A program made the position numbers and the translations under genes. DNA of 39,165 nucleotides, from positions 1 through 39,165 of the forward strand of contig CAIQIC010000214.1 of NCBI GenBank assembly GCA_903871765.1. The letters run 5' to 3'. This document shows positions 1 through 32,821 of this stretch, one piece after another (within the stretch, counting starts at the first letter, position 1; each line of letters begins with the position of its first letter). The notes under the pieces are model-generated. The model made no database searches, was not told the DNA's origin, and was given only the letters and a program-made list of their open reading frames with translations. This DNA is from an uncultured Lentisphaerota bacterium (lineage in GTDB: Bacteria; Verrucomicrobiota; Kiritimatiellia; CAIQIC01).

Positions 1-76
1 GGAGCGGAATCGGTGACGATTCCGGCGCTGAGGAAAGGCCGTCAAATTTCGGAGCGGAATCGGTAACGATTCCGGT
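1..76 (+). repeat. Two GGAG-footed REP-like hairpins (1-26, 51-76), same family as those around the RAYT
   Basis: GGAG-CGGAATCG-GTGA-CGATTCCG-GC and GGAG-CGGAATCG-GTAA-CGATTCCG-GT; the second is identical to the copy at 3502-3527. Confidence 0.9.
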
Positions 77-2092: not shown

Positions 2093-3262
2093 ATGTCCAG
2101 GAAAGAAACCATGACCTCCCGCGAGCGCGTGTTGAAGGCGCTCAACCACGAGATCCCGGACCGCGTGCCGCTGGACCTCGGCGGCAACCAGACGGGCATC
2201 CACAAGAACGCCTACCGCAGCCTGATCAAGCACCTCGGCTTGGCGGAGGAGGTGCAGATCATGGACGCCGTCCAACAACTGGCCCAGCCCTCCGAGAAGG
2301 TGCTGGAGCGCTTCCACGTGGACACGCGTTATATCGCCGCCGGTGCGGCCGGGGACTGGAAGGGCGGCATCGTCCAGGCCGTGCGGAACGGCCGTAAGTG
2401 GCACGATCTGACCGACGAGTTTGGCATCCGCTGGTCCATGCCTGACGACCAGATGCTCTACATGGACATCACCCTGCACCCGCTGGCCAACGCCACGCTC
2501 AAGGACCTCAAGGATTATCCCTGGCCCAAGGGCGACGATCCCGGCCGCTTCGCCGGCCTGCGCGCGCGCGCGCTGCAGCTCCGGAAGGAAACGCCCTATG
2601 CCGTCATCAGCGGCATCTCGGGCGTGGTCTACGAAATCTGCTGGTACCTGCGCGGCCTGGAGCAGTGGTTCTGCGACCTGATGACCGAGCCGCAGTTCTG
2701 TGAGGCGATGCTGGACCAGACCCTCAAGTTCTGGATGGACTGGTTCCGCGCCTTCCTCGACGAGGTGGGCGACGTGGTGGACGTGATCATGATCGGTGAC
2801 GACCTCGCCGGCCAGGATGGCCCGCTGTTCAATCCGACGCTGTACCGGAGCATCGTCAAACCGCGGCACAAGCAACTGGTCCAGTACATCCGCTCGCGGA
2901 CCAAGGCGAAAATCTGGTATCACACCTGCGGCGGCTGCCTGGAATACATCCCCGACCTGCTCGACAACGGCATTGACATCCTCAACCCGGTCCAGGTCAG
3001 CGCCCGCCACATGGAACCGGCCATGCTGAAGCAGCGCTTCGGCAAGCAGTTGGTCTTCTGGGGCGGCGGCTGCGACGCGCAGCACATCCTGCCGCGCGGG
3101 ACGCCGGCGCAGGTTGCCGCAAACGTCCGGCAGAACATGGCCGCGCTCAAGCCCGGCGGCGGCTACGTCTTCAACAACGTCCACAACATCCAGGGCGAGG
3201 TCCCGGCGGAGAACGTGCTCGCCCTCTACGACACCGCCTACGAGTTCGGCTGGTATTCCTGA
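2093..3262 (+). CDS. Uroporphyrinogen decarboxylase / MtaA-CmuA-like family protein
   Basis: 389 aa; N-terminal SRERVLKALNHEIPDRVP, GDDLAGQ, YHTCG, NPVQ, FWGGGCD, GGGYVFNNVHNIQ are typical of the URO-D-like family; RBS AGGAG. Confidence 0.85.
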   Translation: MSRKETMTSRERVLKALNHEIPDRVPLDLGGNQTGIHKNAYRSLIKHLGLAEEVQIMDAVQQLAQPSEKVLERFHVDTRYIAAGAAGDWKGGIVQAVRNGRKWHDLTDEFGIRWSMPDDQMLYMDITLHPLANATLKDLKDYPWPKGDDPGRFAGLRARALQLRKETPYAVISGISGVVYEICWYLRGLEQWFCDLMTEPQFCEAMLDQTLKFWMDWFRAFLDEVGDVVDVIMIGDDLAGQDGPLFNPTLYRSIVKPRHKQLVQYIRSRTKAKIWYHTCGGCLEYIPDLLDNGIDILNPVQVSARHMEPAMLKQRFGKQLVFWGGGCDAQHILPRGTPAQVAANVRQNMAALKPGGGYVFNNVHNIQGEVPAENVLALYDTAYEFGWYS

Positions 3263-3267
3263 CGGGC

Positions 3268-3527
3268 GGAGCGGAACGTGTAAACATTCCGGTTGGAGCG
3301 GAATCGGCTTGCCCTGCGAAGCTGTAGCGAAGCAGGGTGACGATTCCGGTGGATTGTGGGCAAATCGTAGGTGAGCTTCGGAGCGGCGTCGGTAACGACT
3401 CCGGTTGGAGGAAAACACCAGAATGCTTACGCATTCCGCTCCGAGGAATGTTCGGAGCGGAGATGCCGGAATGTTTACACATTCCGCTCCGGGGCTGAGG
3501 CGGAGCGGAATCGGTAACGATTCCGGT
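3268..3527. repeat. Left REP cluster of the RAYT: six hairpins at 3268-3293(+), 3295-3350(+, interrupted), 3380-3405(+), 3417-3442(-), 3465-3490(-), 3502-3527(+)
   Basis: Consensus GGAG-CGGAAT-NN-GTRA-N'N'-ATTCCG-GY read directly in both orientations. Confidence 0.92.
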
Positions 3528-3547
3528 GCCCATCGAAAGACGACGGC

Positions 3548-4225
3548 ATGGAACATGATCGGGAAGAGCTCCCCCGCGGTCGCATGAAGCGGCGACCGCC
3601 CGAGTTCTACCGCGGCCAGTCCTTCGTGCATTGGAGCATGACCATTGCTGGCCGGCGCAGCGGCTGGCTGACCGACGCCTTTCATGCCAGTTTCCGGGAG
3701 ATCCATCTCCACGCGCTGAGCCGTCACGACCTGTTCTGCCCGGTGTACTGCCTCATGCCGGATCATCTGCACCTGTTGTGGCTGGGGCTGGGGCCCGCCA
3801 GCGATCAGGATAAGGCGGCGGCATTTTTCCGGCGGCATGTGAATGCGGCCCTCAAGTCGGTCGGGGGCGAGTTCCAGAAGCAGCCGTGGGACGTCGTGTT
3901 GGGCGAGAAGGATCGCGAGCGCGGCGCGGTGCTGAAGACCGTATTCTATATTGCGGAGAATCCCGTCCGCGCCGGGCTGGTGCGCGAGGCGCGGGCCTGG
4001 CCGTTTTCCGGGTCGCAGGCGGCGGGCTATCCGCAGTTCGATTGGCGGGAGCCGGATTATGGCGAGAAAGTTTGGAAGATTTACGAGGCGGAGGTTTGTC
4101 GCCGGTCGCCGCACGAGCACGCAGTGGAATTTGTGAAGATTCCCGGTAGGATCGGAGCGGAATCGGTCCCGCCGAAGGCGGATCCGCCTCTGGCGGAGAC
4201 GATTCCGGCGCCCGCGGGCGGGTGA
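3548..4225 (+). mobile_element. REP-associated tyrosine transposase (RAYT; IS200/Y1 HUH superfamily)
   Basis: HUH motif YCLMPDHLHLL, catalytic-Tyr motif YIAENPVRAGLV followed by WPFS; flanked on both sides by REP hairpins; alternative start at 3584. Confidence 0.9.
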
Positions 4226-4426
4226 TGTCACGGGGAAGCACCGGAACGCTGACGCGTTCCGCTCCAAAGCGATCATGGAGCGGAACCGGTGATGGTTCCG
4301 GCGGATTGCGGGCAAAGCGTGATCGAATTTCGGAGCGGAATCGGTTACGATGCCGATGTTGTTGAGTAGAGGATGGCCTGCGGAACGGTTCAGTAGAGGC
4401 GCCGGAATGTTTACACATTCCGCTCC
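4154..4426. repeat. Right REP cluster: 4154-4209(+, interrupted), 4240-4265(-), 4277-4302(+), 4332-4357(+, degenerate), 4401-4426(-)
   Basis: Same consensus as the left cluster; 4401-4426 is identical to 3465-3490. Confidence 0.9.
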
Positions 4427-4463
4427 GGGGTGGTGGTGGAATGGAATCGGCACTGCAAAAGTA

Positions 4464-5906
4464 ATGTTCATGAAGACGTTGCTGAAAGTGCTGCTGTGGC
4501 TGGTGGGCGGGTTGGTTGCGCTGGTGGTGCTGTTCTACGCCGAGGAATACGTCCGCGGCCGCTATCTGTGGGAACGGCACCTGCGCGAACTCGCTGCTAA
4601 AGGTGACACCCTGGACATCCGGAAGATTGTCCCGCCGCCAGTTTCCGACGACCAGAATATGGCCGCCGCGCCGATCTTCGCGGAACTGTTCACCACCAAT
4701 CGCTCCGATAAAACCCGACTGGGGCAAGTCAAGCTGCCCGACGTAAAAGCGCAGGCTGGTGGAGGCTGGCTGGGCGGTCAAAAGCTGGATCTGAGTCCGT
4801 GGCGGGCGGCCTTCTCGAACGACAACCTCCTGGCCGCCCTGGCGATCTACGCGCCCGTCCTTCAGGAGATGGAAGCCGCCGCGCAGCGGCCGCAAGCCCG
4901 CTTCAATGTCCGCTATGAAGATGGTCCGGGTGCCTTTTTCCCGCATATCGGTTCCCTGCTCAAGCTGGCCAAAGTGTATCGCATCAAGGCGCTGGCCGAA
5001 CTGGCGGCGGGACACGCCGATGCAGCGCTGGGAGACGTCCGCCTGACGCTCCGGCTGGCCAAAGCCATGGAAGATGAACCCTCGCTGATATCCATCCTGG
5101 TGCGTGCCTCCATGATGCAACTGGTCATCCAACCGGTTTGGGAAGGACTGGCCGACCATCGCTGGAAGGTGGAGCAACTTGAGTCGCTCCAACAGGACTT
5201 TACCGCCATCAATCTTGTGAAACACATGGAACTGGCGCTGCATGGCGAGCGGTGCGGAGTCACGTGGATTTTGGAGCAGTTGCTGAATAATCCTGGCCTC
5301 GCGCTGGGTGAAATATCACGCTTGGATGGTGAACAAAGTGAACCGTCGCTGGCTGCTTATATAATCCCAAAAGGCTTGTTCTATATCAACTGCCTCAACA
5401 CTGACGTTAGCTACCAGAAATACATCATGCCGAGTTTGGACAGCCGGGTGATGCGCATATACCCTGAACGCTTTGATGCCTATGAAGCTGTGCTGGAGGA
5501 TTACAAAAGTCATCCGCTGACCGTACTCTACCATGTCATGGAGGCGATGCTTCTTCCGGCCATCAATAATGCTGAAATGAAAATCGGCATGGCGCAAAGC
5601 ACCGCACAATGCGCCGCGACGGCGTGCGCCCTGGAGCGTTACCGACTGGCGCGCGGCCGCTATCCGGACACGCTCGCGGCGCTGGTGCCGCAGTATCTCG
5701 CGGCGGTGCCCGGCGATGTGATGGACGGCCAGCCGTTGCGCTATCGCCTAGAGGGGGATGGCTTCGTCCTGTATTCCATCGGCTGGAATATGAAGGACGA
5801 CGGCGGGCAGGTGGCGTGGACCAAGCCGTCGTCCGAGGGCGACAAGCCGCGGCTGGACGACAAAGCCGGCGACTGGGTCTGGCGCTCGCAGCCGGCGGCG
5901 CTGTGA
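4464..5906 (+). CDS. Membrane-anchored hypothetical protein with a C-terminal pseudopilin/GspG-like motif
   Basis: N-terminal TM (LLKVLLWLVGGLVALVVLFY); C-terminal ALERYRLARGRYPDTLAALVP..DVMDGQPLRY..LYSIGWNMKDDGG. The ORF-track start 4350 lies inside REPs, so the ATG at 4464 or 4470 is preferred. Confidence 0.75.
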   Translation: MFMKTLLKVLLWLVGGLVALVVLFYAEEYVRGRYLWERHLRELAAKGDTLDIRKIVPPPVSDDQNMAAAPIFAELFTTNRSDKTRLGQVKLPDVKAQAGGGWLGGQKLDLSPWRAAFSNDNLLAALAIYAPVLQEMEAAAQRPQARFNVRYEDGPGAFFPHIGSLLKLAKVYRIKALAELAAGHADAALGDVRLTLRLAKAMEDEPSLISILVRASMMQLVIQPVWEGLADHRWKVEQLESLQQDFTAINLVKHMELALHGERCGVTWILEQLLNNPGLALGEISRLDGEQSEPSLAAYIIPKGLFYINCLNTDVSYQKYIMPSLDSRVMRIYPERFDAYEAVLEDYKSHPLTVLYHVMEAMLLPAINNAEMKIGMAQSTAQCAATACALERYRLARGRYPDTLAALVPQYLAAVPGDVMDGQPLRYRLEGDGFVLYSIGWNMKDDGGQVAWTKPSSEGDKPRLDDKAGDWVWRSQPAAL

Positions 5907-32587: not shown

Positions 32588-32821
32588 TCCTACGCTCTGC
32601 ACCCGCAGACGGGCTTGAGCTACGGATGGCAAGCCATCGGGCGCAGAGTTTAGGATGCCCTGCGAAGCACAAGGCCAAAGGCCGCGGGGCGTAGCAGGGC
32701 AAAGTCTGATTCTTCGTTCTGCGCCCGCCAAGCGGGTTTGCGCTACGGATGGCCAGCCATTCAAGTTGCCGCGCGGAGGATGCCCTCCATAGCGTCAGCG
32801 TAGCGCCGCGCGACGGAGGGC
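32584..32821. repeat. Two tandem ~120-bp units, each an inverted pair of bulged hairpins
   Basis: Unit 1 32584-32700, unit 2 32709-32821; shared GCTACGGATGGC-A/C-AGCCAT and AGGATGCCCT..AGGGC. Confidence 0.8.

Follow-up and report, generated by a model that had tools for sequence, protein, structure and literature searches.

The subject of this analysis is a 39,165-nt stretch of DNA from an uncultured Lentisphaerota bacterium that lives in freshwater sediment communities (contig CAIQIC010000214.1 of assembly GCA_903871765.1), called the window below, in which two hairpins of a repetitive extragenic palindromic (REP) family each carry a different 30-nt insert, here named A and B. The first filled REP lies at 3295-3350 on the forward strand, with a GGAG tag, the stem CGGAATCG/CGATTCCG and the loop GTGA, and is supported by its sequence, its fold and independent contigs. 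Its insert, A, occupies 3308-3337 on the same strand and consists of a CTTG tag followed by the 26-nt hairpin CCCTGC-GAA-GC-TGTA-GC-GAA-GCAGGG, the CCCTGC/GCAGGG variant of its family. The second filled REP, of the same type and strand, lies at 4154-4209 in the 3' end of an open reading frame (ORF) that resembles the REP-associated tyrosine transposases (RAYTs). It carries B at 4168-4197, i.e. two 15-nt hairpins, CCCGCC-GAA-GGCGGA and TCCGCC-TCT-GGCGGA, joined at GGATCC, which makes the two strands of B alike in form. Both 30-mers belong to families of hairpin repeats that recur in many other genomes, and both were probably inserted into the REPs in which they now lie.

A first-pass annotation, made from the letters of the window alone, had recognised these inserts, and its sequences and coordinates for them stand, as does its observation that deletion of either 30-mer leaves a canonical REP, the second then being identical to window positions 1-26. 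Its placement of the inserts within the loops also held, A at G^TGA with a junction ambiguous by GG and B at GT^GA with no duplication, and its description of B as a double hairpin centred on GGATCC agrees with the twin hairpins joined there. The bulged hairpin that it described for A has to be replaced, on the basis of fold and covariation, by a hairpin with a symmetric 3x3 GAA/GAA internal loop. When the two composites were folded as single-stranded DNA (ssDNA), both were predicted to form nested hairpins of -17.1 and -20.4 kcal/mol (z -4.3 and -4.0), and none of 200 shuffles folded as well. A search with Rfam 15 over positions 3000-4700 at E <= 1 found no match on A or B and returned only a chance match to Magnesium-II of 20 bits.

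Misassembly, which the annotation had named as a possible source of both composites, was checked on Logan contigs: the A-filled REP and the two junctions of B are spanned by contigs from four runs, which belong to two studies. The A-filled REP is covered by Logan contig X5 record 27 (3172-3446), and the B junctions by X2 record 16, which runs up to 4198, together with X1 record 8 and X5 record 29, which start at 4169/4170. No empty allele at either site was seen among the Logan contigs of these four runs, a kind of data that cannot show absence. A B-filled ATCG REP that is 95% identical is also present in the genus-mate G001, a genome in which the URO-D gene shows no more than 79% identity. 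The orthologous empty site could not be compared at the window locus itself, as the URO-D neighbourhoods of G001, G002 and G004 are without the entire REP/RAYT cluster.

The REP unit consists of a GGAG tag, an 8-bp stem of the form CGGAAnnn/nnnTTCCG and a GTNA loop, and the three middle pairs of the stem covary across the subtypes ATCG, ACCG, ACGT, ATGT and ACGC. Two empty REPs open the window on the forward strand (1-74 as a whole), at 1-24 (loop GTGA) and at 51-74 (loop GTAA), and a dense cluster at 3268-4426 surrounds the RAYT-like ORF (3548-4225, forward strand, 225 aa), which is flanked by 12 REPs. Empty or degenerate members lie 5' of the ORF between 3268 and 3525, at 3268-3291 (+), 3380-3403 (+), 3419-3442 (-), 3467-3490 (-) and 3502-3525 (+), and 3' of it between 4242 and 4426, at 4242-4265 (-), 4277-4300 (+), 4332-4355 (+) and 4403-4426 (-). 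The ORF, putatively of the HUH/Y1 type, matched the NCBIfam family REP_Tyr_transpos with E 1.8e-11 and 44 bits, under the cut-off of 80 bits, and Pfam Y1_Tnp with an E of 0.17 only; an HLH motif and a YxxxNP motif were spotted by eye. It is the sole close copy in the host assembly, which comprises 3.92 Mb in 573 contigs and is 82% complete. The conserved part of the protein ends near residue 197 (~4138), and the tail of the ORF runs through a degenerate REP-like palindrome at 4121-4144 and then through the B-filled REP directly after it. B had been described as in frame within this tail, and it is indeed in frame in 3548-4225, but the tail through the REP is probably not conserved coding sequence because RAYT homologues align no further than residue 181-197 of 225.

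A tolerant scan of the host genome found 104 REPs with 4-nt loops (GTAA 64, GTGA 20, GTCA 17, ATAA 2 and GTGT 1) and 16 with a loop insert of 28-58 nt, of which 11 belong to family A, 2 to family B and 3 to a third family; degenerate filled REPs at C511, C280 and C399 (C numbers denote contigs) are additional to the 16. The positions of the inserts are strict, A always lying between G and T of the loop (G^TNA) and B between T and the third letter (GT^NA), and six further copies of A interrupt inverted REP pairs precisely at their dyad centre, TTCCGG^CCGGAA, a junction whose empty version is present at C295. Pattern searches of the same genome gave 14 strand-specific matches for A and four places for B, with none for the reversed-pattern controls, and the recurrence of both is more than chance. 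REP contexts account for 13 of the 14 A matches, mainly as a result of the copying of filled REPs with their doublets. Among 15 matches to a looser pattern, eight were more divergent A-like hairpins outside REPs.

The inverted doublets themselves were seen in an alignment of 29 sequences, made up of 17 candidate composites (nine of which are A-filled REPs) and 12 of the 16 empty doublets, which have common flanks and an inverted partner. The filled and empty doublets of the ACCG type have a common left flank (...GCATTATGGTTTC...) and a common right flank, and are therefore one repeat family with or without A. Identical derived variants of A recur at separate loci (C462/C511/C398, C435/C523, and the six centre copies, which have a CCTG prefix), which indicates that filled units were copied as wholes. 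On this sequence evidence a small number of insertions in this genome were amplified along with the REPs that hold them, and several independent entries still seem to have occurred. A occupies ATCG and ACCG stems as well as doublet centres, B occupies ATCG and ACAT/ACGT stems, and the third family occupies ACGT and ATGT stems. That third family (C168, C379 and C479) reads G|YTTGCCAYGGC...CCGGG|TAA over 33-35 nt and has the same CTTGCC start as A; short forms with a single GAA triloop are found at C460 and C193. One REP doublet, at C398 (4750-4900), holds A in its left REP, with the left arm of A partly duplicated internally, and B in its right REP. In the window, 32656-32701 contains an A-like hairpin, TGCCCTGCGAAGC ... 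GCGTAGCAGGGCA, the tip of which is not YNNR and is instead a 20-nt GGCC-AAA-GGCC hairpin; the same structure occurs on contig C75 (~1983-2028), giving two copies of a third level of nesting.

Family A has the consensus CYTG-N-CCTSC-GNA-GC-YNNR-GC-GNA-GSAGG-N. Covariation at the positions left free by the search pattern was strong, with Watson-Crick pairs in 114/126 (T-A 61, C-G 52) and in 123/126 copies (C-G 107, G-C 16), and the tip pair is Watson-Crick in 113/126 (C-G 77, T-A 36) with the two middle letters of the tip unpaired. The internal loop GNA/GNA is kept, its middle letter being free. We also considered A as two GCGAAGC mini-hairpins, a fold that was set aside, as the covarying pair and the kept internal loop favour one long hairpin. 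Y-NN-R tips and sheared G-A motifs are features typically found in stable DNA hairpins, and a CUUG loop is a known RNA tetraloop; the predicted fold of A would be compatible with either DNA or RNA as the functional form and does not say which. Family B is built of two tandem 15-nt hairpins, TCCGCCnnnGGCGGA.

The view that the inserts belong to repeated elements and are not unique sequences was borne out, since both recur in the host genome, in its relatives and in metagenome and phage contigs. Among 41 related genomes, A was found in 10 and B in six, and reversed-pattern controls gave zero or one match. In species-representative genomes a 29-letter pattern for A matched at least 122 stretches, with record titles that name Saccharibacteria and other Patescibacteria, Gammaproteobacteria, Bacteroidota, Verrucomicrobiota, Opitutaceae, Kiritimatiellia, Planctomycetota, Acidobacteriota, a cyanobacterium, Omnitrophota, Bacillota and others; two isolates, a Mesorhizobium and a Rhodospirillales strain, are among the matches listed. 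A was also present in 42 stretches of viral contigs. B was found in at least 123 metagenome stretches, often with AT-rich flanks, in four viral stretches and in 26 of 401 genomes of the host phylum, G376 alone having 103 copies. A plasmid collection from cultured bacteria gave only partial, chance-level matches for A and B. A full-text search of the literature, which did not extend to bioRxiv preprint supplements or the Elhai paper, found no description of either 30-mer or of guests in REP loops.

The surroundings of these copies are diverse. Many copies of A lie inside tracts of 7-8-nt tandem repeats such as CCCATTC, ACCTCCG and TCAACGCT (L034, L044, L056, L084, L141 and others). In the viral contigs L321 and L344 (3000-3525), A lies between genes for a prohead protease, a decoration-like protein and a major-capsid-like protein, just 5' of ribosome-binding sites, and behind one of these copies stands a second, related hairpin. 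Several other viral copies come directly after the stop codon of a gene on the opposite strand. A larger element bounded by A arms was sought with a half-site scan, which proved too noisy, and an inverted pair of A copies 1.1 kb apart (G023:C7) was rejected as a pair of element ends, since what lies between them is an ordinary operon gene.

One insertion of B is in the gene for PolX, a PolX-family DNA polymerase, of the related genome G023 (L018/L359, G023:C57), where exactly 30 nt, TCCGCC...GGCGGA, encoding SARGGSAAGG, stand in frame after NEYGVF and ahead of the next conserved residues. Seven orthologues have nothing at this site, a decayed 30-mer is present in G027 and a 15-nt remnant in each of G025 and G007, and G001 differs throughout; no target duplication is visible among the orthologues compared (L360-L370). 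Judged from this alignment, B is a true insertion of exactly 30 nt, i.e. 10 codons, without target duplication. In two genera (L022, G015:C105; L026, G023:C31) the C-terminal tail of RuvB contains SARGGSASGG, encoded by a B-like 30-mer, but such copies are not a clean test of insertion because of their place in the tail. In G007, two partial copies of tRNA-Leu(UAA) have B within the anticodon, at CTT^AAAA, again with no target duplication. At this locus (L028, G007:C19:14104-17131, ~1447-2010) an intact tRNA-Leu(UAA) and a 105-aa GIY-YIG gene lie between the two B-split partial copies, an arrangement that looks like a small element breaking a tRNA gene and bringing a spare copy. Among the matches listed, 97 of 123 metagenome copies of B are flanked by T at -2 and 96 by A at +2, which suggests either a TT^AA preference or a slightly longer element. 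REP loops, PolX and tRNA-Leu all lack a target duplication, and insertion of this kind, beside a short specific target, is a feature not exclusive to HUH elements.

The annotation had further claimed that the elements target hairpin loops. A copy was counted as lying at a tip when it abutted a perfect host stem of >=6 bp, and two controls were run per family. Among the matches listed, 10/123 copies of A across phyla lay at the tips of host stems, against 1.7% and 1.3% in the controls, and 12/123 metagenome copies of B did so, against 2.6% and 2.7%; with stems of >=8 bp the figure for B was 8/123 against 0.4% in the control. The enrichment at palindrome tips is about four- to sixteen-fold. It speaks for the claim, but about 90% of copies lie elsewhere and the pattern within the host genome is confounded by co-copying, so that the claim is only partly supported, the preference for loops being real but partial. 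The sites away from tips include heptamer-repeat tracts, positions directly after stop codons, the spaces between phage structural genes, and coding loops.

The annotation had also proposed looking for a nuclease or transposase gene linked to each family, and such genes were found, as each family flanks its own clade of genes for single-domain GIY-YIG nucleases of 80-105 aa, in 11/30 loci against 0/30 and reciprocally. The search covered 401 genomes of the host phylum and took the best 30 loci per clade query, clade 1 being queried with the B-flanked 105-aa gene of G007 and clade 2 with the 82-aa gene on C360 of the host genome. For clade 1, 11 of the best 30 loci had B within ~150 nt of the gene, often both upstream and downstream and next to genes for tRNA-Leu, Tyr, Ser or Arg, and none had an A-like hairpin; all 11 positive loci were among the 16 closest homologues. 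For clade 2, A-like hairpins were found in 11 of the best 30 loci (13 hairpins, where ~0.5 would be expected from the genome-wide 6.4 per Mb), 12 of the 13 being upstream of the gene and co-oriented with it at 8-323 nt, and B was found in none. At least six families per clade are represented among the positive loci, and a clade-1 homologue is present in 6/7 genomes with at least eight copies of B, compared with 36/394 others. Among ten GIY-YIG homologues in five relatives, B was seen only at the query locus, the association emerging with the closest homologues across the phylum.

The Pfam GIY-YIG domain spans residues 5-74 of 82, 1-68 of 80 and 24-86 of 105 in three of these proteins; the nearest solved structure is the UPF0213 protein 1ZG2, and a search of NCBIfam returned no family for them. 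Two clade-2 genes are present in the host genome itself, at C360:3579-3824 and C266:5611-5844. Genes of both clades also occur in tandem, in arrays where two to three copies are spaced by a few hundred bases (G094:C26:22844-23811, G230:C1:5890515-5891633 and G221:C1:89055-89655), and in the G221 array each GIY-YIG copy starts at a B element. Comparable proteins have been described as Ssn: these are 94-aa GIY-YIG proteins that bind a hairpin repeat of ~30 nt as ssDNA and cut a few bases upstream of it (Chenal et al. 2025, PMC11893778), and their genes are flanked by their own repeat in 71% of cases (PMC11893778).

We regard it as probable that each 30-mer of the window is a copy of a different widespread, GC-rich hairpin repeat of 30 nt, inserted in a REP hairpin of a REP/RAYT system, with an Ssn-like GIY-YIG nuclease as partner. 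The enzyme concerned would be an ssDNA nuclease of the Ssn kind and not the HUH RAYT, and it may bind its own hairpin in ssDNA and cut beside it. REP loops and palindrome centres would be hit because ssDNA is exposed there, and for B the same places might also offer T^A-like sites, which are rare in a 64% G+C genome. The RAYT would then carry the passenger hairpins along as an unwitting copier of filled REPs. To this extent the proposal of tiny non-autonomous elements nested in a REP system was right, as the families are dispersed and B forms a clean insertion of 30 nt whose orthologous sites are empty elsewhere. A bolder version, which we offer tentatively and think rather more apt to fail than to hold, is that no class of true mobile DNA is smaller than that of A and B. 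They would be 30-nt hairpins that Ssn-like GIY-YIG single-strand nucleases of dedicated clades mobilise in trans, and they would insert without duplication into exposed ssDNA (hairpin loops, palindrome centres, tRNA anticodon loops and the surface loops of genes), cross phyla on phages and, in this genome, be parasites of another selfish system, as riders in REP doublets copied by the RAYT.

Several observations weigh against the reading that we regard as probable. To our knowledge GIY-YIG enzymes do not join strands, and no orthologous pair of empty and filled sites is available for A, for which the evidence consists of paralogous REPs and doublets only. About 90% of the copies listed across phyla lie away from hairpin tips, and the near-exclusive location in REPs within the host genome is confounded by the co-copying of filled REPs in doublets. 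At C127 and C208, A stands in the opposite orientation to the REP and the letters of the loop are altered, a picture that suits an exchange between palindromic stems better than a fresh insertion. As to the gene association, 19/30 loci per clade are without the pattern, and the Fisher test (p = 3e-4 each way) has a significance that is inflated by relatedness among the genomes. No canonical A or B lies beside the two GIY-YIG genes of the host genome in their assembled flanks, and no clade-1 (B-linked) gene was found in this genome at E <= 1e-8 in an assembly that is 82% complete. A and B do not fit the consensus of the SRM, the repeat of the Ssn system, HGTCWY...RNCYNB, and of the 25 matches that an SRM expression gave in the host genome, not one fell on A, on B or on a REP of window 3200-4500. 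The text of the Ssn paper available to us shows cleavage, not mobility (PMC11893778).

A different origin would be that the hairpins are non-mobile functional modules, e.g. operator or leader hairpins of GIY-YIG genes or intercistronic hairpins that stabilise mRNA, which entered REPs once or twice and were then spread by REP copying, recombination or gene conversion. This would fit the way in which variants of A track the REP subtype of the host and have common doublet flanks, the inversion and altered loops of the copies at C127 and C208, the A-like hairpins 8-110 nt 5' of GIY-YIG starts (3' arm GAAGGAGG), the phage copies between structural genes just before ribosome-binding sites and the many copies directly after a stop codon. 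It does not account for the exact 30-nt in-frame insertion in PolX with its empty orthologues, nor for insertion within tRNA anticodon loops; moreover, the same 30-mer is found in unrelated contexts across phyla, with AT-rich flanks, and the occupied sites include no fewer than three subtypes of REP stem and both positions in the loop. We consider this explanation unlikely, if the more serious of those weighed here.

The mechanism suggested by the annotation, in which an HUH enzyme (the RAYT or one of the IS200/IS605 type) moves the 30-mers by cutting and rejoining ssDNA in hairpin loops, is unsupported and seems to us more doubtful still. The inserts do lack target duplications, the host REPs do flank the sole RAYT-like gene, hairpin tips are enriched as hosts, and the two abutting hairpins of B might be likened to a minimal pair of left and right ends. 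But RAYT cleavage sites reportedly lie beside the foot of the hairpin and not in its loop (as Ton-Hoang 2012 and Messing 2012 are said to have found), both families occur in phage contigs and in non-REP contexts, with A in many phyla, and the reciprocal gene association is with GIY-YIG nucleases. G007, which is 97% complete and has eight copies of B, gave no homologue with the host RAYT as query, other HUH families not being searched, and the RAYT would therefore not be needed. Finally, the inserts could be assembly or binning artefacts, i.e. chimeric joins at repeats. The assembly is fragmented (573 contigs) and the contigs of the runs break inside repeats, but contigs of four runs and two studies cross the junctions, the same composite is present in G001, and the 16 filled REPs lie in different unique flanks; we give this possibility practically no credence.

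If the preferred reading, i.e. inserted hairpin repeats with an Ssn-like partner, is correct, it would connect the Ssn-type nucleases, themselves newly described, with a large and apparently undescribed set of 30-nt hairpin repeats that is spread over many phyla, most of them uncultured. The repeats, which add ten residues to proteins such as PolX, would gain a partner enzyme that can be tested, and the nucleases might in turn have a selfish rationale. Two unrelated repeat systems would be stacked here, with GIY-YIG-linked hairpins inside HUH-linked REPs, which would provide a tractable case for single-stranded hairpins as landing sites, and new pairs of hairpin and nuclease would enlarge the set of site-specific cutters of ssDNA.

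Among known systems, the Rickettsia palindromic elements (RPEs; Ogata et al. 2000) and the small dispersed repeats (SDRs) of cyanobacteria (Elhai et al. 2008) are reportedly also very small palindromic repeats that stand in frame in genes and are nested in other repeats. RPEs are said to be 100-150 bp long, with sequences that differ from A and B, and we know of no nuclease partner described for RPEs or cyanobacterial SDRs. Unlike either, A spans many phyla.

The host hairpins resemble those of REP/REPIN-RAYT systems (PMC3116915, PMC3733652) in having a tag, an 8-bp stem and a tetraloop, in being present in more than 100 copies, in forming inverted doublets and in clustering round a single RAYT-like gene. 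They differ in the tag, which is GGAG here and GTAG there, in that the REP is here the host and not the guest, with guests linked to another enzyme family, and in that the RAYT-like protein scores under the NCBIfam cut-off. Among REPs with CGTC and GTAG tags, some have been noted as regular insertions within another palindrome and as in-frame parts of genes (Di Nocera et al. 2013, PMC3733652). The REP families of O. terrae from the same paper were considered and set aside, as the REP-encoded peptides given in the text available to us are unlike the translations of A or B (PMC3733652). REPs are also preferred landing sites for other mobile DNA, as in the REP-targeting insertion sequences IS1397, ISKpn1, IS621 and ISPpu9/10 (Tobes and Pareja 2006, PMC1525189); those elements are 1-2 kb long and have their own transposase, whereas the guest here is 30 nt long and has no gene.

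The Ssn (SsnA) system, with its NTS/SRM hairpin repeats, differs from A and B in that the available text of its paper reports cleavage and an effect on transformation and not insertion into genes, tRNA loops or REP loops (PMC11893778), and in that the GIY-YIG genes of our host genome are without an adjacent canonical A or B. The likenesses are several (PMC11893778): in both cases there is a small GIY-YIG protein, here of ~80-105 aa, the gene is flanked by a hairpin repeat of ~30 nt that is also dispersed in the genome, differing clades pair with differing hairpins, and a short tag stands 5' of the hairpin, CGTC in the Ssn repeats and CYTG in A.

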